24,825 bases of DNA from an uncultured Methanosarcinales archaeon (GCA_964478955.1 CAYZNE010000002.1:1-24825), one strand, 5' to 3'. Numbered from the stretch's first letter, positions 1,773 to 17,339 are shown. The notes: generated by a model not told the origin, from the sequence alone. A program made the numbers and translations.

Positions 1773-4256
1773 TTAATCATTATTAACAACTTTTGCAATA
1801 CTTGTTACTTTATCGCCAGCCTTAAGTTTCATAATTCTTAGACCCTGGGTGTTTCTTCCTATAACTGAGATTTGTGAAGCTTGTGTTCTTATTACTTGCC
1901 CTTGTTTGCTCATAATGATTATTTCATTCTGATCATAAACTTGTCTTATTTCTACAACTTTTCCATTTCTTGGACTGCAGATAATATTTCTAACTCCTTT
2001 TCCACCTCTTCTTATGAGTCTATATTCAGGAATACTTGTTCTTTTACCATAACCGTTTTCAGTAATTGTTAGGATTGTAGCATCATCTTTTGCAACAACT
2101 GCACCTATAACTTTATCTTTAACTAATGTTATTGCTCTTACTCCTCTGGCACTTCTTCCTATTGGTCGAGCATCTTTTTCATTAAATCTTACTGCTTGAC
2201 CATTCTTTGTTGCAATCATTATATTTTCTGAGCCTGATGTTTTCAGAACTTTAACTAATTCATCTTCTTGATCTAAACTGATTGCAATAATTCCTCCATT
2301 TCTTGGTCGGCTATAGAGTTTTAATTCTGTTTTTTTAATTATTCCTTTTTCTGTGACCATTGCAAGGTATTCTGATTTACTAAAATCTTTTATTGGGATA
2401 ACTGCACTAATAGAGTCTTCTTGTTTTAGGTTAAGTAAATTTATTATTGCTTTACCTTTGCTTTGTCGTGAAGCTTCAGGTATTTTATATACTTTTAGCC
2501 AATGAACTTTTCCTTTATTTGTGAAACAGAGTAAGTAAGATTTTGTATTTGCAATAAATATATCTTCAATAAAATCTTCTTCTTTTGTTTGCATACCAAT
2601 AACTCCCTTTCCTCCTCTATTTTGGATTTTGTAGTTTTTTATTGGCATTCTTTTTATGTAACCTGAATTTGTTATCATTATTACTTGATCTTCTTCTTCA
2701 ATCATATCTTCAATGTCAACTTCTTCTTCCTGATCTGAAATCTCTGTTCTTCTTTCATCACTGAACTTTTCTATTAATTCTTTTGATTCTTTCTTTATTA
2801 TTTTCTTAATTTCGTTTTCATCAGATAAAATTATTTTTAGTTTTTCTATTAGTGACAGTGCATCTTTTAGATCTGTTTTTATTTTGTTTTGTTCTAAACC
2901 AGTTAGTTTTTGTAATTTTAAATCTAGAATTGCCTGTGCTTGTTTTTCACTTAAATCAAAATTTCTAATTAATCCTTCTCGTGCATCCTTTGCGGTTTTT
3001 GATGATTTAATTAATTTTACAACTGCATCAAGATTGTCTAGTGCAATAACTAGACCTTCTAATAAATGCGCTTTTTCTTCTGCTTTCCTTAGATCAAAAG
3101 TAGTTCTTTTTATTATTACTTCTTTTCTATGATCTATAAACACAGCTAGTGCATCTAGTAATGTTAGAGTTACAGGTTTTTTATCTAGTATTGCAAGAAG
3201 ATTAATACCAAAACTAACTTGTAATCTTGAATGTTTTAGAAGCTGTGCTTCAACAACTTCGTATGATGCATCTCTTTTTAATTCAATAACTACTCTGATA
3301 CCTGTTCTATCAGTTTCATCTCTTATGTCTGAGATGCCTTCAATGACTTTATCTTTAACCCCATTTGCAATTTGGGTTATCATTAATGCTTTGTTAACCA
3401 TGTAAGGTAGTTCTGTGATTATGATTGCGTTCTTATTTCTTACTGTTTCTTGATGGCATTTTCCTTTAATTCTAATAATCCCTCTGCCTTTTGCATAGGC
3501 TGATTGTATACCTGTTCTGCCAATTATTATTCCTCCAGTTGGAAAATCTGGCCCAGGAATGTATTCCATGACTTCAGCAACTGTAAGATCTGGATTATCG
3601 ATTTTTGCAATTATTGCAGAGCAAACTTCTTTTACATTATGGGGTGGAATATTTGTTGCCATTCCAACTGCAATTCCTGAGGAACCATTAACTAATAAGT
3701 TGGGTAGTTTTGCTGGAAGAACTTCAGGTTCTGTTAATGAACCATCAAAGTTCTCTACAAAAGAAACAGTTTCTTTGTTAATATCTTGAAGCAACTCTTC
3801 TGTAATTTTCATCATCTTTGCTTCAGTATATCTCATTGCTGCAGGGCTATCCCCATCTATACTTCCAAAGTTTCCTTGACCATTAACTAAAGGATATCTA
3901 AGAGAAAACTCTTGTGCCATTCTAACTAATGCATCATATACTGATTGATCTCCATGTGGATGATATTTACCAAGAACGTCTCCAACAATTCTTGCAGACT
4001 TTCTAAATTGCTTGTTGTACTGTAATCCAAGGTCATTCATTGCAAAAAGAATTCTTCTATGAACTGGTTTTAACCCATCTTTTGCATTGGGAAGTGCTCT
4101 GCCAATTATAACAGACATAGCATAATCTAAGTATGAAGTTTTCATTTCCTCATCAATTATTTGAGGAATTATTTTGTCATTAGTTTCTGCTAGATTTTCA
4201 TCATTTCTAACATTATTTTCTTCAATATTCTTAGGCATTTTATCGTCGTGCACCAT
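1773..4256 (-). CDS. gyrA: DNA gyrase subunit A
   Basis: [33 protein letters not shown], catalytic AAMRYTE, GyrA-box QNRGGKG, C-terminal pinwheel repeats (RNGG, RSARG, RRGGKG, RNTQG). Confidence 0.97.
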
Positions 4257-4337: not shown

Positions 4338-7262
4338 CTATTCAATGGTAATATTAACAGGAGTTGGTCCTGCAGATAATACATTTCCATCCCAATTAAT
4401 TTTCCACACTATTATTCTTTGATTTGATGTTTGTGATCTAAGATCTGAGAACTTTTCAAAGTGGGTGGTATATTTACCATCAAAATAAAATAGTCTTGTG
4501 AAAATTGAAGTGCTTAATTCTTTAGAACTAACTACTGCACTATTGCCAATATTAAATATTGAAATATCAACACCACTTGCTGAAGAGTCATAAGTTTTTA
4601 ATTCGTTATTGATTTCAGTTGTAAATGATCTTATACTTACCTTATCTTCACCTACTTTTGTTGTTCCTTTATATATTCCTAATACCCCTTCGCCTTCTTC
4701 TGTAAGTTTATTAAATATATATTTTTCTATAACTAAATCTGCACCATTTTGTGAACCAATTTTTACATTAATATTACAATTAACTGTGTTATTGATGTTT
4801 AAACATGATCCTGTGCCAATATATCCTGGCCAACCACTTATCCAAGTGTTAGCTTCTTTTTCAGTTTGAAGCATATTTATTTCATCAAATAGAACTTCTA
4901 TTTCAGAATCTTCATAATTATGTATTTTTGCAAGATTTGTGAATGAAGAAAAGTCTTTACTTTTTCCATTATAATAAAGATCTGCTTTTTTGAAATCCCA
5001 TAATCCAAAGTGTGCCCAAACTCCTGATTTAGAAACCATATCCCCACTAGTTATATAGTATGCCTCTGGAGGATTGCAGTGTGTTTTTTGTAATATACTA
5101 TTTACTGAACTAGTTTGAAAACCTTTACTCAAGAGAATTTGTTTAGCATCTTCTTTGTTCTCTTGCACGATCTCGTCAAGAATAGCTACGCTTAGTGCAG
5201 GATTATTTAATTCATTATTTAATAATTCAAATGCGTCATTTGATCCACAATGAAGCATTCTAAGTATTCCAACTGTTAAATCTTCATTGCTTGTTACAAG
5301 TGATTTTCCAACCCAATGGGCCATTGGCGTATTCTGAGTTACACCATCAAATGTTACTGCTCTATCTGCAACAGCTTTAAACCAGTGGCCGAAATCCCAC
5401 CAAGAAGTGATTATCGCCTTCTGATCTGATTCTGCTCTTATTTTTGTTAAAGACTCATGCCATGCATCATTCATTTGTGGGATTTCATTTAGTGAAACTA
5501 TGTGTGCAGCACCAAAATAATTTACAAAAATTATTACAACTAAAATAAGAACAATAATTTTTGTTGCAATCTTTGGTATGTCAAATAGAACATGCAACCT
5601 TTTACTTAATTTAATAAATAGTATTCCTATTGTTAACCCAATCATTAATGAGAATGGATTAATCCCCAATAAAACAAATCTTATTCCTCTTACAGAGGCA
5701 AAAATAGTTCCAGCAAAAAGAGCACCTAATAGTGCAGGAAGTAATATACTTGCTCTCTCTTTTCTCTCTTGAAATAAATTAACAAGTATTCCTATTGCAA
5801 CTGTTAGTAAAATTAAGACTATGTAAAAGTTAGGACTTATTTTTGCAATAATAGATTTGCTTGTTAAGATTAAGTATAATATCGCTGATCCAATTAAATA
5901 AGTCCATGTTCTTTTATTGTATACTTTTATTAGTGATAATGGAATTGCGAGTAATGCAAGAAATATCATTGTTTGTCCTAGACTGCTTGAAGCTAGGGCC
6001 TTTGTTATTCCTGTTAGACTCTGTGTGTTTAACTCTGCAACTGTTGTATAAACATTAGGCCACAATGTCGAATGAACTGCATTCTGTAATCCTGCAGATC
6101 GCGTTACAGATGTTAGTGTAGAAATTACTACTTTGTAACTCATAAATATAATTGTTACTAATAAATAAACTGCAAATATTATTAGATTTGATCTAATAAT
6201 TCTTGAATGAAACAATTTGATATGTTTTTTCTTTGATTCTTTAGAATCTATTAGTATTTTTATTATTTGGTAAATTATCATTCCAATTAATACTGCAATT
6301 AAGATATCGAATGAGAAGTACCATCCTCCTCCCCAAGTTTTATAGAATATCCATGTTGCAACTCCTGCTAGCGCTGCAAATAAACCTTTTTTCTGATAGC
6401 TTCTTGCAGAAAACGCTTCTATAATAAACCAAAAGATGAACAAGGGCATTGTTATACCATATGCATCTGTATCTACAAATCCTGCAGGAGTTCTACCTAA
6501 TAAGTATGGGTGTATTCCTACAAGCATTGCTGCAACAAATCCACCTACAATTCCTGCATATTTTTTAATAATAAAAAATGCAGGTATAAGCCCTAATAAT
6601 ATGATTAGTGCAGGAATAAGATATATTGAGTTTAATAAGGGTGTTCCTGGTTTGAAAAAGTTAGAGATTTTATATGTCCAGAAAAGAATTAATGTGTGTC
6701 CATCAAGTGTCATTTCTCTTCCTTTTGGCGCAACTTCATGTGTGTTCCAGCATACGTCTTCTTTTATCTCATCGCAAACTGTTCCATCTTCAATTAAGTT
6801 TGTTGCTTTTAGAGAATAATAATAAGGATCAATTGCAAGCAGGTAAGTTTGATTATTTTCATCTTGAAAATCTTCCCTGTATTGTGCTGCCAAACTTTTT
6901 TGAGATGATTCTATATTATTTTTTTCTGTTTGATAAACTTCTGCAAATCGTTTATTTATGAGATCTTCTTTATTTACTTCTGGAAGGTTAGGATATTCTG
7001 AGTCTACTTGCGTTTTTATTTGTGATTTATAATAACTAATAACTGAGCTTTCTGCCCAGTCTTCTGTTTTAGGTAGTGTTTCAGTGTATGTTCTAAAGTA
7101 AATTGAACAAATCATTGTAACTAAAATTAAGAGTATTATAAGGGTAGTTTTGTTGAATATTTTTTTGTTAGAAAAAAAGTCTTTGGCCTTAATACCAAAT
7201 TCTTTTATATTAAGATTTGTTTCTATAGTATCTTCAGTATCATGTTTTTTGTCTTCATCCAT
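4338..7262 (-). CDS. aglB: Oligosaccharyltransferase AglB (STT3 family)
   Basis: DPYY, DTD, TVAEL, many TM helices, signature SWWDFGHW, downstream DMVSK (DK motif). Confidence 0.95.
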   Translation of the reverse strand: MDEDKKHDTEDTIETNLNIKEFGIKAKDFFSNKKIFNKTTLIILLILVTMICSIYFRTYTETLPKTEDWAESSVISYYKSQIKTQVDSEYPNLPEVNKEDLINKRFAEVYQTEKNNIESSQKSLAAQYREDFQDENNQTYLLAIDPYYYSLKATNLIEDGTVCDEIKEDVCWNTHEVAPKGREMTLDGHTLILFWTYKISNFFKPGTPLLNSIYLIPALIILLGLIPAFFIIKKYAGIVGGFVAAMLVGIHPYLLGRTPAGFVDTDAYGITMPLFIFWFIIEAFSARSYQKKGLFAALAGVATWIFYKTWGGGWYFSFDILIAVLIGMIIYQIIKILIDSKESKKKHIKLFHSRIIRSNLIIFAVYLLVTIIFMSYKVVISTLTSVTRSAGLQNAVHSTLWPNVYTTVAELNTQSLTGITKALASSSLGQTMIFLALLAIPLSLIKVYNKRTWTYLIGSAILYLILTSKSIIAKISPNFYIVLILLTVAIGILVNLFQERKERASILLPALLGALFAGTIFASVRGIRFVLLGINPFSLMIGLTIGILFIKLSKRLHVLFDIPKIATKIIVLILVVIIFVNYFGAAHIVSLNEIPQMNDAWHESLTKIRAESDQKAIITSWWDFGHWFKAVADRAVTFDGVTQNTPMAHWVGKSLVTSNEDLTVGILRMLHCGSNDAFELLNNELNNPALSVAILDEIVQENKEDAKQILLSKGFQTSSVNSILQKTHCNPPEAYYITSGDMVSKSGVWAHFGLWDFKKADLYYNGKSKDFSSFTNLAKIHNYEDSEIEVLFDEINMLQTEKEANTWISGWPGYIGTGSCLNINNTVNCNINVKIGSQNGADLVIEKYIFNKLTEEGEGVLGIYKGTTKVGEDKVSIRSFTTEINNELKTYDSSASGVDISIFNIGNSAVVSSKELSTSIFTRLFYFDGKYTTHFEKFSDLRSQTSNQRIIVWKINWDGNVLSAGPTPVNITIE

Positions 7263-7550: not shown

Positions 7551-8768
7551 ATGAAAAAGATAAATAAAATAGGAATTTTAGCATTTTTGATAATTGCAAC
7601 TTTACTTCTTTCTGCTTGCAGTTTGACTTACGTACCTGATAATAAATCTGCATTTGATATGGATTCAGGATTGCTTGGTGATAGAAGTGAAATAATGTTT
7701 GATGATGATTCTGTGTTGGTTGATGATGATCGAGAATTAATAAATTATGCAGATGAAGAAATAAATGAATCAGATGTTGCTATGACTGTTTCTGCAGTTG
7801 AGGGAGATCTTATTGATCTTCAACCAAAAGCAGTTGATCCTGATGATGATTTAATTGAATATACTTTTACTAATCCATTTAATGAAGTTGGTTTATGGCA
7901 AACACAAGATGGAGATATTGGAAGGTATCTTATTACTATAAGTGCAACAGATGGTGATCTAGTAATAAAAGAATATGTTCTAGTAATTGTGTATCCTAGA
8001 AACAAAGCCCCTGTTGTTGAATGTCAAGAAGAAATGGTTGTTTTTGAAACTGATACAGTAAGTTTAAATTGTAATTTCTATGATTTAGAAAATGATATCT
8101 TTTCATTATCTTACTCTGGTTGGATGACTTCTGATGAATATACTACAACTTATGATGATGCAGGTGAATACACTGTTATTGTATCTGCAGAAGATAGTGA
8201 GAATAATACTATTCAAAAAGAAGTAAAAATTATTGTGAAAAATAAAAACAGACTTCCTATCTTAAGTGGTGTTGAAGATATCTATGCAATGGAAACAGAG
8301 ATTATTGTTCTAAGTGTAGGTGCTGTGGATGCAGATAGTGATAATTTTATTATGAGTTTTGGAGCACCATTTGATGAAGATGGTGTTTGGGTTACTGCAG
8401 ATGGAGATAATGGTGATTATGTATCTTATGTTCAAGTAACTGATGGAACAGATACTGTAACAGAAAGTTTTAATATTTATGTTGAACACATAAATACAAT
8501 ACCCCATCTTGCACCAATTGAAGACATTGAAGTAACTGAAGGAGATGTTGTTCTAATAGAAACTACTATTAGTGATGCTGAAGATGATGAACTAACTGTA
8601 ACATTTTCTGGTTGGATGACTTCTGAAGTATATGCAACTACTTATGATGATGCTGGAGAACACTATGTTAAAGTCACTGTTAGTGATGGTCAACTGGAGA
8701 TTTCACAAAATGTGAAAGTAACTGTTAGTAATTTAAATAGACCTCCTGTGTTTATTGTTCCAGGATAA
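7551..8768 (+). CDS. Secreted acidic lipoprotein with tandem Ig/cadherin-like domains
   Basis: Likely start ATG 7551 after GAGGGG. Basic N-terminus, hydrophobic core, lipobox-like LLLSAC. Repeated DxDxD turns and NxxP domain starts; internal duplication SGWMTSDEYTTTYDDAGEY / SGWMTSEVYATTYDDAGEH. Confidence 0.8.
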   Translation: MKKINKIGILAFLIIATLLLSACSLTYVPDNKSAFDMDSGLLGDRSEIMFDDDSVLVDDDRELINYADEEINESDVAMTVSAVEGDLIDLQPKAVDPDDDLIEYTFTNPFNEVGLWQTQDGDIGRYLITISATDGDLVIKEYVLVIVYPRNKAPVVECQEEMVVFETDTVSLNCNFYDLENDIFSLSYSGWMTSDEYTTTYDDAGEYTVIVSAEDSENNTIQKEVKIIVKNKNRLPILSGVEDIYAMETEIIVLSVGAVDADSDNFIMSFGAPFDEDGVWVTADGDNGDYVSYVQVTDGTDTVTESFNIYVEHINTIPHLAPIEDIEVTEGDVVLIETTISDAEDDELTVTFSGWMTSEVYATTYDDAGEHYVKVTVSDGQLEISQNVKVTVSNLNRPPVFIVPG

Positions 8769-8779
8769 TTCCGGTTAAC

Positions 8780-8808
8780 GGTGCCAATAACTAATAGTTA
8801 TTGAGTAT
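8780..8808 (+). repeat. Bulged-A hairpin element, copy 2 (followed by T tract; may also act as terminator)
   Basis: GGTGC CAATAACTA A TAGTTATTG A GTAT, starting 12 nt after the 8768 stop. Confidence 0.8.
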
Positions 8809-8826
8809 TTTTTTATTTGATTAAAC

Positions 8827-8854
8827 ATGCCAATAACTAAATGTTATTGAGCAT
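8827..8854 (+). repeat. Bulged-A hairpin element, copy 3
   Basis: ATGC CAATAAC TAAAT GTTATTG A GCAT, followed by a T tract. Confidence 0.8.
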
Positions 8855-9286: not shown

Positions 9287-9319
9287 GGTGCCAATAAAGT
9301 TTTTATCTTTATTGAGCAT
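9287..9319 (+). repeat. Bulged-A hairpin element, copy 4
   Basis: GGTGC CAATAAAG TTTTTAT CTTTATTG A GCAT, starting 12 nt after the 9275 stop. Confidence 0.8.
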
Positions 9320-10688: not shown

Positions 10689-11461
10689 AGAAACAATCTT
10701 TGGTAATTGAGATAAATGTTATTTGCAACTTCTTCTTCATCTAATTGCTTTAGCTCTGCAATCTTTTTAATGACAACAATTACATTGCTAGAATCATTTA
10801 TCTGACCTTTTGATGGTGCAAGAAATGGTGCATCTGTTTCTGTAAATAATTTGTTTAAGGGTGTGCTTTTTATTATGCTATGAAAATGCAATGCCCTTTC
10901 AACATTAGTTGGAATAGAGAAATACCATCCATTGTTAATTATCCTTTGAATAAATTTTTTCTTTCCTGAAAAGCAGTGCATAATAACTTTCTTAGCTTTC
11001 ATTTCTTCTAATGCAATTATTGTGTCTTCTTCTGCCTTCCTTGAATGCACAATAATTGGAATATCTTTATCAATACTTATCTGTATTAATTTTTTAAAAT
11101 ATTTTATCATTCTTTGCTTTGTTTCATCTGAGAAAAATACTTTATGCTCATGGCCTTTTCCTTGAAAATAATCAAGACCAACTTCACCTATTGCAATACA
11201 CTTATTATTTCTAATAAACTCAAGTTCTTTTTCTAATTGCTCATCAGTATACTCTGCAATATGTGTAGGATAAAATCCTAATGCAGGTTTAACAATATTA
11301 TACTTTTTAGCTAATTCTAAAACATTCCTATTGCTTTCAGGCTCTGTTCCTTGGGTTATGATTACTTTAACACCAGCATTCCTGCATTTAGAAATAACTT
11401 CATCAATTCTCTCAATTAAGCCCTTATAGCTTAAATGGGCATGCACATCAATTAATTCCAT
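10685..11461 (-). CDS. tatD: TatD-family nuclease
   Basis: IDVHAH, GFYP, IGEVGLD, IVHSR, MHCF, TETDAP. Confidence 0.95.
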   Translation of the reverse strand: MELIDVHAHLSYKGLIERIDEVISKCRNAGVKVIITQGTEPESNRNVLELAKKYNIVKPALGFYPTHIAEYTDEQLEKELEFIRNNKCIAIGEVGLDYFQGKGHEHKVFFSDETKQRMIKYFKKLIQISIDKDIPIIVHSRKAEEDTIIALEEMKAKKVIMHCFSGKKKFIQRIINNGWYFSIPTNVERALHFHSIIKSTPLNKLFTETDAPFLAPSKGQINDSSNVIVVIKKIAELKQLDEEEVANNIYLNYQRLFL

Positions 11462-11548: not shown

Positions 11549-11650
11549 TTATTTCTTTAATCTTTTACGTTTTTCTTTCTTCATTCTTTTACGTTGCCAC
11601 TTCCAACGCATTTGACCTTTCTTTTTCCAACGTCTTGAACTTCTCTTCAA
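11549..11650 (-). CDS. rpl41e: Ribosomal protein eL41 / eS32 (archaeal), 33 aa, not in the ORF track
   Basis: TTG start after GGTGA; translation MKRSSRRWKKKGQMRWKWQRKRMKKEKRKRLKK matches the archaeal L41e pattern as I recall it. Confidence 0.88.
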   Translation of the reverse strand: MKRSSRRWKKKGQMRWKWQRKRMKKEKRKRLKK

Positions 11651-11718
11651 TTTATCACCAAATTATCATATATTTTTCTTCTTGCTCTCCTAACGGAAAC
11701 CTCATATAATTTTAAATA

Positions 11719-11733
11719 TGCTCCAAATGGGAT
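11719..11733 (-). repeat. Direct copy of the tRNA-Glu 3' end
   Basis: Minus strand ATCCCATTTGGAGCA versus ATCCCGTTCGGAGCA (Glu-UUC) and ATCCCGTTTGGAGCA (Glu-CUC). Confidence 0.8.
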
Positions 11734-11752
11734 CCGTAGCAATTTCTTGCGA

Positions 11753-11782
11753 GGTGTCCAATAACCGTAGGTTATTGAGTAT
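11753..11782 (+). repeat. Bulged-A hairpin element, copy 7 (antisense to the adjacent tRNA)
   Basis: GGTGTC CAATAACC GTA GGTTATTG A GTAT. Confidence 0.75.
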
Positions 11783-11783
11783 C

Positions 11784-11802
11784 TTCGAATCTCGTTGGAA
11801 TA
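11784..11802 (+). repeat. Inverted degenerate copy of the tRNA-Glu(UUC) 3' end
   Basis: Plus strand TTCGAATCTCGTT-GGAATA versus tRNA TTCGAATCCCGTTCGGAGCA. Confidence 0.7.
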
Positions 11803-11806
11803 TAAA

Positions 11807-11881
11807 TGCTCCGAACGGGATTCGAACCCGTGTCCTCGGATCGAAAATCCGAGATGATTGACCGGACTACACCATCGGAGC
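11807..11881 (-). tRNA. tRNA-Glu(UUC)
   Basis: Acceptor GCTCCGA/TCGGAGC, anticodon arm TCGGA-TTTTCGA-TCCGA, T-loop TTCGAAT; CCA not encoded. Confidence 0.96.
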
Positions 11882-12147: not shown

Positions 12148-14211
12148 TTATTCAAAAACACTACTTATAATTTCTTCAGCATTAAACTTCTTTAAATCTT
12201 TATATTCTTGCCCTGTTGTTATGAATAATATTGGTTTTTCAGTAACATGACTTATTGAGATTGCTGCACCACCTTTCTCATCAATGTCTGCTTTTGTTAG
12301 AATGATTCCATCAATACCAACTGATTTATTGAATTCTTTTGCCTGTTCAACACAATCATTACCAGTAATACTTTCCCCAATAAAGATTTTCATATTTGGA
12401 TTTACTACTCTAATAACTTTTTCAAGCTCTTGCATTAAATTAGAGTTGCTATGTAATCTTCCGGCAGTATCTATCAAAACCACATCTACTGATTTTGATT
12501 TTGCATGTTCTATTGTATCATATGCGACTGCAGCAGGGTCTGCACCATAGTCATGCTTGATTAACTTAGTATTAAGATTGTTTGTGTGTTCTTCTATTTG
12601 TTGGATTGCTGCAGCTCTAAATGTGTCTGATGCTGCAACCACGCATGTTAAGTTATTGTCTTGGAAATATTTTATTAATTTTCCAATTGTTGTTGTTTTC
12701 CCTGAGCCATTAACCCCAAGCATTAATATTTTGTAAGGCTTTTCTGAAGTTTTTATTTTTTCAATTAAGTCTATTGGTTCATAACCAAACAGAGACTCTA
12801 TTGTTTGTCTTAAATTGTTCAGGATTATTTCATCTATAGATCTTCTTGTTACCTTTGTGTTCTCTAGTTCTTCTTTAAGATTGAATTTTATTTTTTCAAT
12901 AACTTCTACTGCAACATTATTTTCTAGAAGTGCAACTTCAAGGTCCCAGAATAATTCATCAAATTTCTCATCTGTAATATTTAATTTTATTATCTTTTCT
13001 GACAGTTTTTTGAAGATTCCCTTTTTCTTTTGTGTTGGATCAACAAGTTTTTCTTTTTTATCTTCCTTTGCTTCTTTAACATGAACTTCTTCTTGTATGT
13101 GGGGTTTTTCAAGAGCAGGAAAGTCTTCTTTTTTTAGTAAATCTTTTTTCTTTTCAATGTGTTTTTCTACTTTCTGAGTTATTTTGTATTCCCAACCTGG
13201 TTGCCATGCTTTTCTTAATCTCCAATCTTCTGCTAGTGCTTGTGTCCAAGTTTTATTATTTAGAAGAACTTCTATTGCTAGTTGAGAATATCTGTGTGCG
13301 GCAATAGCTATGTGTTTTCCTTTGTATTTTTTATATAAGTCATTAAGAAATTTTCTTATTCTTGCAGTTACCTCGTTGTAACTTTCGCCTTTTGGATAAT
13401 TTTCATATATAGGATTATGATCTTTTTTGAATTCATTAAGTTTTGACTTATGTTGACCATTTAGTTTTCCATAATCACATTCTCTTAATCTTTTATCAAC
13501 AATTGTTTCTTTATCTGGCCAAGTTATATTTGCAGAATCAATTGCTCTTTTTAGATCTGAAGTGAATATTTTATCAAAATCATATTTTGTTTGATTAATT
13601 AATTCTTCAGATTGAGTTATTCCTAGTGCAGATAGTTCTGTTGAGTTTTGCCCCGTACATACACCTGCTTCATTATCTTTTGTTGTTCCGTGAACAAAAT
13701 AAGTTATATGCACTTCGTTTTCTGGAACTTGTTTTTTAATTTTAGTTGTTTCTTTAATTTCTTCAATTATGGGTTTTGGAGCTTCTTCAATAACTTCTTC
13801 CTTTGACTTTTCCTTTGGCTCTTCAATAACTGGTTCTTCTTTAATCTCTTCAACCTTTTCCTCTACTTCTGGTTCGGGAACAGGAACTTCTTCAACAATT
13901 TTTTTTATTATTTCCTTTGGCTCTTCAATCACGGGTTTTTCTTCAACCTTCTCTTCTTTAACTGCATCTTCAGCGTTAATCTTTGCTTGCTCTTCTGCAA
14001 TCTCTTCCTCAATAGATTTAATTTCTTCTGGTTGTTCCTCTTTTTTCTTTTTAGAAAATACTTTTTTGAAAAACCCCTTTTTCTCTTTTTCCAATTCTTG
14101 TTTTTCTTCTTCACTAATTTGATCTTCAGAAATAGTTTTAGCGTCTTCTACTATTTCCTCAGCTATTTTTTCTGAGGTTTCTTTTATTTTCTTTTTTAGG
14201 AAGCCAAACAT
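12148..14211 (-). CDS. ftsY: SRP receptor FtsY with acidic N-terminal region containing an inserted histidine-phosphatase domain
   Basis: C-terminal NG GTPase: GVNGSGKTT, DTFRAAA, DTAGR, TKAD, GGA. Residues ~167-344 carry FVHGTT, TSDLKRA, RLRECDYG, PKGES, IAAH. Confidence 0.93.
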   Translation of the reverse strand: MFGFLKKKIKETSEKIAEEIVEDAKTISEDQISEEEKQELEKEKKGFFKKVFSKKKKEEQPEEIKSIEEEIAEEQAKINAEDAVKEEKVEEKPVIEEPKEIIKKIVEEVPVPEPEVEEKVEEIKEEPVIEEPKEKSKEEVIEEAPKPIIEEIKETTKIKKQVPENEVHITYFVHGTTKDNEAGVCTGQNSTELSALGITQSEELINQTKYDFDKIFTSDLKRAIDSANITWPDKETIVDKRLRECDYGKLNGQHKSKLNEFKKDHNPIYENYPKGESYNEVTARIRKFLNDLYKKYKGKHIAIAAHRYSQLAIEVLLNNKTWTQALAEDWRLRKAWQPGWEYKITQKVEKHIEKKKDLLKKEDFPALEKPHIQEEVHVKEAKEDKKEKLVDPTQKKKGIFKKLSEKIIKLNITDEKFDELFWDLEVALLENNVAVEVIEKIKFNLKEELENTKVTRRSIDEIILNNLRQTIESLFGYEPIDLIEKIKTSEKPYKILMLGVNGSGKTTTIGKLIKYFQDNNLTCVVAASDTFRAAAIQQIEEHTNNLNTKLIKHDYGADPAAVAYDTIEHAKSKSVDVVLIDTAGRLHSNSNLMQELEKVIRVVNPNMKIFIGESITGNDCVEQAKEFNKSVGIDGIILTKADIDEKGGAAISISHVTEKPILFITTGQEYKDLKKFNAEEIISSVFE

Positions 14212-17210: not shown

Positions 17211-17339
17211 TTTTTGTTTTCACCTTGAATTAATGTTTAAATTAAACACTTTTTTTAAGATAGTATGAGTCTAAGATTTTCTTTTGTTTGAAATAAATAC
17301 CCAATAATTAAATTTATTGGTACCGATAAAAAATCGGAA

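Follow-up and report, generated by a model that had tools for sequence, protein, structure and literature searches.

The trailer of an archaeal tRNA-Glu(UUC) gene as a probable member of a gene-less repeat family at tRNA 3' ends

Repeats, palindromes and attachment sites near tRNA genes

Repeats linked to tRNA genes have been known from Escherichia coli since 1978. These tRNA-linked repeats (TLRs) comprise the 178-bp rtT/tyrT repeats as well as RrA, RrB and RrF; they carry no gene, follow tRNA or rRNA genes immediately, frequently form stacks (a locus has one to five units), and end in a copy of the tail of the upstream gene, which is represented by its last 18-19 nt (PMC8144298). Their origin is unexplained, and RrA, RrB and RrF are reported to be processed to small RNAs (PMC8144298). 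The REP and REPIN sequences are short imperfect palindromes, extragenic and mostly placed just past stop codons, with tens of copies per genome; the imperfections of their stems are biased to one strand, and they occur both as single copies and as inverted pairs. Integrative elements also leave their mark on tRNA genes. The tyrosine integrases that target these genes cross over in the T-loop or in the anticodon loop, and the attL and attR sites of the integrated elements have as their classical signature a direct repeat that runs from the T-loop to just past the end of the tRNA.

The locus described here comes from an uncultured Methanosarcinales archaeon (GCA_964478955.1 CAYZNE010000002.1:1-24825), and "the window" refers to this whole stretch of 24,825 nucleotides. 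The assembly that holds it as contig C2 is archaeal (0.96 Mb in 132 contigs, 92% complete, about 31% G+C) and contains an archaeal RNase P RNA. We refer to this genome as G000 and to the three congeners with which it was compared as G001, G002 and G003. In the window, a tRNA-Glu(UUC) gene closes an Asn-Ile-Glu tRNA cluster, and the 88 bases behind it are a copy of a hairpin repeat whose core is reversed. This trailer belongs to a genus-restricted family of gene-less modules of about 75-120 nt that stand at around half of the tRNA 3' ends. A 2026 survey of archaeal transposons describes no similar module (PMC13343696), and the nearest published counterpart that we found is the TLRs of E. coli (PMC8144298).

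As in the TLRs, gene-less units, often stacked, lie directly downstream of tRNA genes and end in a copy of their 3' end, which at Glu(UUC) is the distal arm. Trailers were tabulated for all 31 tRNA genes found by Aragorn in G000, and among the 29 that were scored, the gene-specific 13-mer (positions 61-73) recurs downstream in 14 and upstream in none, a recurrence being defined as at least 10 of 13 bases within 330 nt. The copies behind the two Glu genes are more degraded than the others of the family. Unlike the TLRs, the modules are archaeal and belong to one genus, their copy starts in the T-loop and often passes the tRNA end, they add an inverted copy of the T-arm, and their core, which exists in both orientations, is shared with the ends of protein genes. 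A search for homology through the Rfam family RtT gave no match at E <= 10.

The modules resemble REPs and REPINs in all the traits listed above, and G000 contains 39 canonical copies of their gene-end hairpin, 19 of which lie at most 90 nt past a stop codon on the same strand. However, the Y1 (RAYT) transposase (PF01797) that goes with REPs was not found in G000 (92% complete), G001 and G002, while G003 has two matches; moreover, the modules duplicate and invert their target, which REPs do not, and their core is placed within a copied tRNA T-loop. With the tRNA-targeting integrative elements they have in common a direct repeat, from the T-loop to or just past the tRNA 3' end, that brackets an insert, an intact tRNA gene, and a displaced original 3' end on the distal side of the insert. 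They differ from these elements by an insert of only about 70-100 nt without integrase gene or cargo, by the additional inverted arm, by the use of one core at more than 15 tRNA genes and by a repeat that varies from 19 to 33 nt.

Organization and folding of the Glu(UUC) trailer

The trailer is composed of an inverted, degraded arm, a two-hairpin core (11734-11783) and a direct arm (Table 1). The reading of the tRNA strand past the discriminator gives TTTAT, ATTCCAACGAGATTCGAA (11801-11784), GAT, a 9-bp hairpin with a UAC loop, then ACACCTCG-CAAGAAATTG-CTACGG and finally ATCCCATTTGGAGCA, the direct copy of the tRNA 3' end, which finishes at 11719. The proximal arm corresponds to tRNA positions 54-72, copied in reverse complement and in degraded form, covering the T-loop, the 3' strand of the T-stem and the 3' strand of the acceptor stem, and it gives an inverted match of 15 nt with 2 mismatches to positions 54-68. 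The distal arm is a copy of positions 57-73, through the discriminator A, that is joined to the core within the T-loop; it is identical to the tRNA at 14 of these 17 bases (hand count) and gives a direct match of 16 nt with 2 mismatches from position 59.

Table 1. Features of the tRNA-Glu(UUC) locus, in window positions
Feature	Position	Strand	Basis
tRNA-Glu(UUC), intact	11807-11881	minus	Rfam RF00005, 61.5 bits; Aragorn, anticodon ttc
TTTAT spacer	11802-11806	minus	Loop between tRNA 3' end and inverted arm; from sequence
Proximal inverted arm, ATTCCAACGAGATTCGAA on the tRNA strand	11784-11801	minus	Inverted match to tRNA
Core hairpin 2, TGTC-CAATAACC-GTA-GGTTATTG-A-GTATC, bulged A	11755-11783	+	Gene-end element design
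Core hairpin 1, CCGTAG-CAATTTCTTG-CGAGG	11734-11754	+	Pattern search match
Distal direct arm, GGATCCCATTTGGAGCA	11719-11735	minus	Direct match to tRNA 3' end
33-aa lysine/arginine-rich ORF, MKRSSRRWKKKGQMRWKWQRKRMKKEKRKRLKK	11549-11650	minus	ORF list; next gene downstream of the Glu(UUC) trailer

The design of the second core hairpin matches that of the canonical TGCC-AATAA..TTATT-G(A)GCA copies. Its two G.T wobbles fall on the + strand, and it differs from the ortholog in G002 by one compensatory double change, from C-G to T-A. The first core hairpin reads GCAA-GAAA-TTGC on the tRNA strand, and its length differs between G000 and G002 with the pairing retained. The short ORF that comes next downstream, which we take to resemble ribosomal protein L41e, has a TTG start preceded by a GGTGAT Shine-Dalgarno-like motif. 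It is found 3' of tRNA-Glu(UUC) in all four congeners, so that the locus can be identified as orthologous among them.

An earlier note on this DNA had proposed that the 83 nt from 11801 to 11719, on the tRNA strand, can fold as a tRNA mimic that would be freed by RNase P and RNase Z. The fold as such was recovered by RNAfold, with the helices UUCCAA/UUGGAG and GAUUCG/CGGAUC placed around a junction that encloses the 9-bp hairpin and GCAA-GAAA-UUGC. The stretch reaches -21.1 kcal/mol on the minus strand, compared to -12.6 +/- 3.0 for shuffled sequences (z of -2.8; none of 200 shuffles was as good). Its minimum free energy structure is a three-way junction and contains no cloverleaf. Both Aragorn and the Rfam tRNA models call the true tRNAs only, with no call on the trailer, and a permissive Rfam scan of 11600-11810 returned no match to the tRNA clan. 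At E <= 10 no Rfam family matches the unit, the sole hit being a chance C/D-box match in the neighbouring stretch. Given the three-way junction and the missing match to tRNA models, we rejected a genuine tRNA or tRNA-like gene.

The comparison of strands and of sister units also speaks against the mimic. The + strand of the unit reaches -25.1 kcal/mol (z of -3.1) and is more stable than the tRNA strand because two pairs at the base of the stem are G.T on the + strand. In the same way, 6 of the seven reversed sister units have a tRNA strand that is less stable than its complement; among all seven, the pairing from arm to arm ranges from 0 bp (G002 Arg-CCU) up to 15 bp. The acceptor-like letters ATTCCAAC of G000 are degraded to AATTTATA at the homologous place in G002, its closest relative, where the ends of the unit still pair over 15 bp (RNAfold), although the positions involved are not homologous and the stretch is rich in A/U and G.U. 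A closing helix of acceptor type is thus not conserved: its letters have changed in G002, and some sister units do not have it. From the variable pairing of the arms and the degraded letters of G002, one expects an acceptor-like helix wherever an inverted arm is long and little decayed. The closing helix of the Glu(UUC) unit therefore has the appearance of a by-product of an unusually long inverted arm, rather than of a selected tRNA mimic. Unlike this helix, both core hairpins are kept between G000 and G002.

The likeness to the tRNA-like RNAs that are cut by RNase P and RNase Z, such as mascRNA, is a real one as far as the Glu(UUC) copy closes a helix that measures about 12 bp, finishes with an unpaired A and resembles the stacked acceptor and T stems of these RNAs. 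However, in contrast to the mascRNA type, the unit has no cloverleaf, no T-loop/D-loop signature and no match to a tRNA model, the letters of its arm are degraded in the closest ortholog, and some sister units are without the helix. This also bears on annotation: foldable stretches of tRNA size behind tRNA genes can be by-products of repeats, and they need not be mimics.

A module family with two orientations and a generic core

Throughout the family, the modules are built of three parts. The first is a proximal inverted copy of the T-arm of the host tRNA, which at times reaches into the acceptor strand and matches its own tRNA, as GTGATTTGAAC does behind Leu-UAG and GAGATTCGAAC behind Arg-UCG. 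The second is a core of about 50 nt with two hairpins. The third is a distal direct copy of the tRNA, which runs from the T-loop (from between C56 and R57, or from 59-61 in reversed forms) to the discriminator and often extends 1-13 trailer bases past it; overall, the direct repeats measure 19-33 nt. Stacked units are found behind Ile(UAU), Lys(UUU), Lys(CUU), Thr(UGU), Phe and Asp. As to the arrangement of stacked pairs, a forward unit is followed by a reversed one at all 5 loci of G000 where they were seen (Lys-CUU, Lys-UUU, Asp, Thr-UGU and Phe), and the reversed unit comes first in the two pairs seen in G002 (Glu-CUC and Arg-CCU); in the pairs of both genomes the cores face each other, as the halves of a REPIN do.

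The core is in itself a repeat that is also found behind many protein genes of G000, where the gene-end hairpins usually stand between two T-runs. The CCG..CGG first hairpin is likewise found behind protein genes, ahead of the second hairpin, and its frame CCGTAG..CGAGG carries different paired inserts (AGCTTTGCT, CAATTTCTTG, CAACACTTGTTTTG and AACTCAAAGAGTT) at 17 other sites of G000. On the forward strand of the element, the stem mismatches amount to 15 G.T versus 5 A.C, in a screen that includes some non-family hairpins. Given this bias, and given the lower stability of the tRNA strand in 6 of 7 reversed units, the polarity of the stems tracks the element and not the tRNA.

Inside the window, further gene-end hairpins are located behind protein genes at 8782-8853, 9289-9318 and 17298-17322, two of them in tandem past an ORF that ends at 8768. 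Elsewhere in G000, the bulged gene-end hairpin also lies within larger nested inverted repeats (C4:12760-12900, C41:1800-1960, C43:3880-4030 and C10:5260-5380). These have the look of structured RNAs, about 150-170 nt in size, and the copies on C41 and C43 are nearly identical; these loci match no Rfam family. More generally, other stable RNA genes were considered as hosts of modules, and rejected, five further hairpin-bearing loci having no Rfam match.

Regarding orientation, the earlier note had reported that the Glu(UUC) unit reads opposite to its tRNA, and this holds: on the + strand, AGTATC and then TTCGAATCTCGTTGGAAT (11784-11801) come after the hairpin CAATAACC-GTA-GGTTATTG (11759-11777), and the tRNA gene is on the minus strand. 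It sets the unit apart within the window, where the Glu(CUC) and Ile(UAU) units are on the tRNA strand, but not genome-wide, where about 9 of about 23 units are reversed according to counts of unit types and orientations made by eye from the trailers. The tRNAs that host forward units (types A and C) have T-stems of many different sequences. The reversed units fall in two groups. The first has the junction TCGAACTGG-CCAGTTC / reversed core / GAATgCTGGG and is found only at Ser(UGA), Ser(GGA) and Gln(CUG), which have a CCAG/CTGG T-arm in common. The second, which includes the Glu(UUC) unit, has the deletion-type junction CTACGGATCCC (CTACGGA/TCCC) and is found only at tRNAs in which the 3' strand of the T-stem starts with CCC; the exact junction occurs at Glu-UUC, Lys-UUU, Asp and Phe of G000 and at Glu-UUC, Glu-CUC and Arg-CCU of G002, and variants of it at Lys-CUU (CTATGGAACCCCC) and Thr-UGU (CTACGGAACC). 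The sub-lineages of the module follow the sequence of the T-arm.

Three forms of the module occupy the orthologous locus between Glu(UUC) and the L41e-like ORF in the four congeners: a forward A unit in G001, a forward C unit in G003, and a reversed unit in both G000 and G002. The inversion that had been proposed for this locus is therefore borne out insofar as orientation differs between species, but a local flip is an unlikely cause of it. A simple flip in situ of a forward unit of the G001 type would keep GAAC-NN-GTTC at the right junction, and the reversed units do not have this motif. Since it is missing, and since the junction is common to the reversed units of other tRNA loci, the reversed form is more likely to represent a sub-lineage that was copied into the Glu(UUC) locus before the split of G000 and G002. 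The same evidence weighs on the idea of a programmed invertible switch, in which a recombinase would flip the core between the inverted arms and alter termination past the tRNA cluster or read-through into the L41e-like ORF. Such a switch has in its favour the inverted arms that flank the core, the two orientations found at one orthologous locus across species and the several XerA-like recombinase paralogs of the genome. It is nevertheless hardly credible, because the reversed unit lacks the junction that a flip would leave and has one of its own that is common to reversed units elsewhere, because orientation has not changed between G000 and G002 after they diverged, because no recombinase gene adjoins the module, and because the G002-like organism, represented by its MAG and two metagenome contigs, shows one orientation only.

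An exchange between loci, which had also been suggested, is in contrast plausible. As stated in the earlier note, the 3' copy is closer to the other Glu isoacceptor: CCCATTTGGAGC differs at 1 of 12 bases from positions 61-72 of Glu(CUC), CCCGTTTGGAGC, and at 2 from those of Glu(UUC), CCCGTTCGGAGC. The tRNA-Glu(UUC) gene has C67 (with G6) in G000, G001 and G003 and T67 (with A6) in G002. In G000 as well as in G002, T67 is shared by the distal arm and Glu(CUC). Furthermore, the first hairpin is identical in the Glu(UUC) and Glu(CUC) modules of G002, which are about 91% identical to each other, compared to about 84% for the orthologous modules of G000 and G002 (hand count). The letters of an isoacceptor are found in a second case, on contig C55, where the module behind tRNA-Gln(CUG) (2879-2953, minus strand) carries a copied 3' end, CTGGGCGGGGCTA, that is exactly the 3' end of Gln(UUG) and not that of its own gene. 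Transfer of modules from one isoacceptor locus to another would explain these sequences most economically, ancestral polymorphism being a possible rival.

Presence and absence of the modules differ between close relatives. At Leu(UAG), Leu(CAA), Val(UAC) and Leu(AAG), modules are present in G000 and absent from G002, and at these four sites the trailer of G002 aligns with the DNA past the distal copy of G000 (scores of 38-56) and not with the proximal trailer (1.5-10). Conversely, Arg(CCU) has a module in G002 and is empty in G000. At the level of the alignments, this establishes that a module is inserted or deleted as a whole unit with the tRNA remaining intact, so that the distal copy is to be seen as the original 3' end and the DNA past it as the ancestral trailer. 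Leu(UAG) and Val(UAC) are empty in G003 too, and their direct repeats in G000 are perfect over 27-28 nt; we read these two modules as probable recent gains of the G000 lineage, with the direction of some of the presence/absence differences resting on three or four genomes; the assemblies are fragmented. In G002, perfect tandem units are found at Ser(UGA) and at least two copies at Glu(UUC), and both the assembly and the matching metagenome contigs break within the Glu(UUC) repeat array. A run of N at about 20950-21060 of contig C1 of G002 lies in this array, two Ga0307992 contigs end or begin within the repeat, and the run probably corresponds to a scaffold gap.

Beyond these genomes, the core 21-mer of G000 had no match in public metagenomes, and the junction pattern was found there in the G002 organism only. 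Among 201 genomes of the order, the first-hairpin motif exceeds the control in one genus only, and a 3' copy at the tRNA-Glu locus was found in none of the eight other families examined. By its distribution, the module would be repeat DNA that turns over between species, and not a conserved tRNA look-alike.

One can still ask if the trailer has a function as an RNA that would be co-transcribed with the tRNA cluster and in which the copied 3' end would act as a 3'-processing signal of tRNA type, releasing a stable RNA. Several observations are consistent with it: the unit is more stable than its shuffled versions, compensatory changes preserve both hairpins, as seen from G000 to G002 and in the wider family, the stems show more G.T than A.C, and the Glu(UUC) locus is occupied by some module in all four congeners. 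A precedent comes from E. coli, whose TLRs terminate with 18-19 nt taken from the 3' end of the preceding tRNA or rRNA and include three processed small RNAs (PMC8144298). We nonetheless regard such an RNA as unlikely. Three forms in two orientations occupy a single locus, so that no single RNA is conserved, and the more stable, wobble-bearing strand of the reversed units is antisense to the tRNA. In addition, sister units differ in their closing helix (0 to 15 bp), the closest relative has no module at many of the orthologous sites, and the sequence family is limited to one genus.

Candidate enzymes and the origin of the modules

We looked for enzymes that could be tied to the modules. Cas1 (PF01867) and TnpB are both absent from the four congeners. 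In the absence of Cas1, a casposon or a CRISPR-like integration with long target duplication was rejected, and so was a miniature derivative of IS200/IS605-TnpB elements, there being no TnpB and a Y1 transposase only in G003. Genes for tyrosine recombinases number from 3 to 14 per genome in the four genomes, with 5 in G000 and 14 in G002; their best scores are XerA-like, and none exceeds the curated cut-off. None of the five genes of G000, on contigs C89, C32, C12, C36 and C110, lies on a contig with a called tRNA gene, and none adjoins the Glu(UUC) module. An integron attC site served by an integron integrase was rejected as well, since the five recombinases are XerA-like and below the integron-integrase cut-off, and the matches are split in two. 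An RVT_1 reverse transcriptase gene is present in G000 (C130:640-1255, minus strand), interrupted by a TAA, and is open in G002 (C54:500-1096); no link of this gene to the modules was found. A retro-copy of a pre-tRNA 3' end was rejected on the grounds that the copies start at 56/57, passing 57/58 where a stop by modification is expected, that they are without CCA, and that their differences from the tRNA are not adenine-specific. In sum, no connection with the modules emerged for Cas1, TnpB, Y1, RVT_1 or the tyrosine recombinases.

Partial copies of the tRNA-Gly(UCC) 3' end occur away from the gene in G000, at C10:2269-2290, C12:4222-4233 and C3:20509-20520. One of them lies 53 nt behind tRNA-Ser(GCU), and one is on the contig of a XerA-like recombinase gene (C12:818-1318), about 3 kb apart from it. 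These copies look like the attachment sites of conventional integrative elements and, together with the numerous recombinases, they indicate that ordinary integration in tRNA genes probably also occurs in this lineage. This raises the question of whether the Glu(UUC) module could be the att scar of such an element, i.e., a virus or plasmid with its own tyrosine integrase that entered tRNA-Glu around the T-loop and of which nearly everything was later lost by deletion. The direct repeat that brackets the module from the T-loop to just past the tRNA end has the form that a scar would have, and both the att-like Gly(UCC) copies, with one at some 3 kb from a recombinase gene, and the 3 to 14 recombinase genes per genome are in line with such an origin. 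But the insert is only about 70 nt, and independent, near-total deletions would not yield one generic core at more than 15 tRNA genes with arms taken from each gene's own tRNA. An inverted arm is foreign to att scars, and the core is also found behind protein genes without any tRNA sequence. A scar is, on balance, quite improbable.

We favor instead, with a probability of roughly 60%, that the modules are repeat DNA generated by recombination at the T-loop, a reading that takes place at the level of DNA. According to it, modules would arise and spread through recombination or through template switching during replication, starting in the T-arm. The T-arm is a hairpin whose loop is nearly universal and, in many of the tRNAs concerned, palindromic (TTCGAA). 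Short identities of T-arms would direct the copying between loci that share a T-arm or are isoacceptors, here probably from Glu(CUC) to Glu(UUC), and the direct repeats would drive both tandem growth and precise loss. The zig-zag of tRNA 3' end, inverted arm and direct arm would be the product expected of two successive strand switches. The stacking of modules, their amplification in tandem and the occurrence of the core in both orientations are established from the arrays and trailers compared.

Several facts weigh against this DNA-level origin. The repeats are 19 to 33 nt long, whereas a transposase makes a target duplication of fixed size, and the origin of the inverted arm is accounted for by none of the mechanisms tested. 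As to the reading of modules as gains, the presence/absence pairs could also come from precise loss between direct repeats. Compensatory stem changes and strand-biased wobbles are also expected of a functional RNA, and the occupation of the Glu(UUC) locus by some module in all four species could mean selection. Another possibility, which we consider very improbable, is that the modules are mobile elements that encode no protein and address themselves, by way of a single-stranded DNA or RNA form of their own forward strand. The leading arm, complementary to the 3' region of the tRNA, would find the T-loop, install the core and copy the target, so that each copy would be re-tailored to its host tRNA; in reversed units such as that of Glu(UUC), RNA read from the forward strand would act as an antisense, its complementarity to the 3' end of tRNA-Glu spanning 17 nt.

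If the recombination reading is true, the tRNA genes of a small-genome archaeal lineage would be hot spots at which a tiny repeat installs itself without breaking the gene. With its filled and empty site pairs, its recent gains that still have perfect repeats, its two orientations and its hints of copying from one isoacceptor to another, the family would bring the long-unexplained tRNA-linked repeats within reach of comparison and biochemistry in a second domain of life.

Two minor observations in G000 concern tRNA sequence in other settings. On contig C1, the paralogous mini-ORFs at 10800-10875 and 12475-12550 (MGKKFNLISVLLNDVIPSGRGYL and a near copy) hold in their final codons 13 bases of the tRNA-Gln 3' end, which is probably a coincidence. 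On contig C33, at about 4774-4785 and thus 32 nt past the initiator tRNA-Met (4668-4742), there is a lone, perfect inverted copy of 12 nt of the T-loop and T-stem, AGTGGATTTGAA, that comes without hairpin core and without direct copy, and that may be the remnant of a module or an early stage of one.
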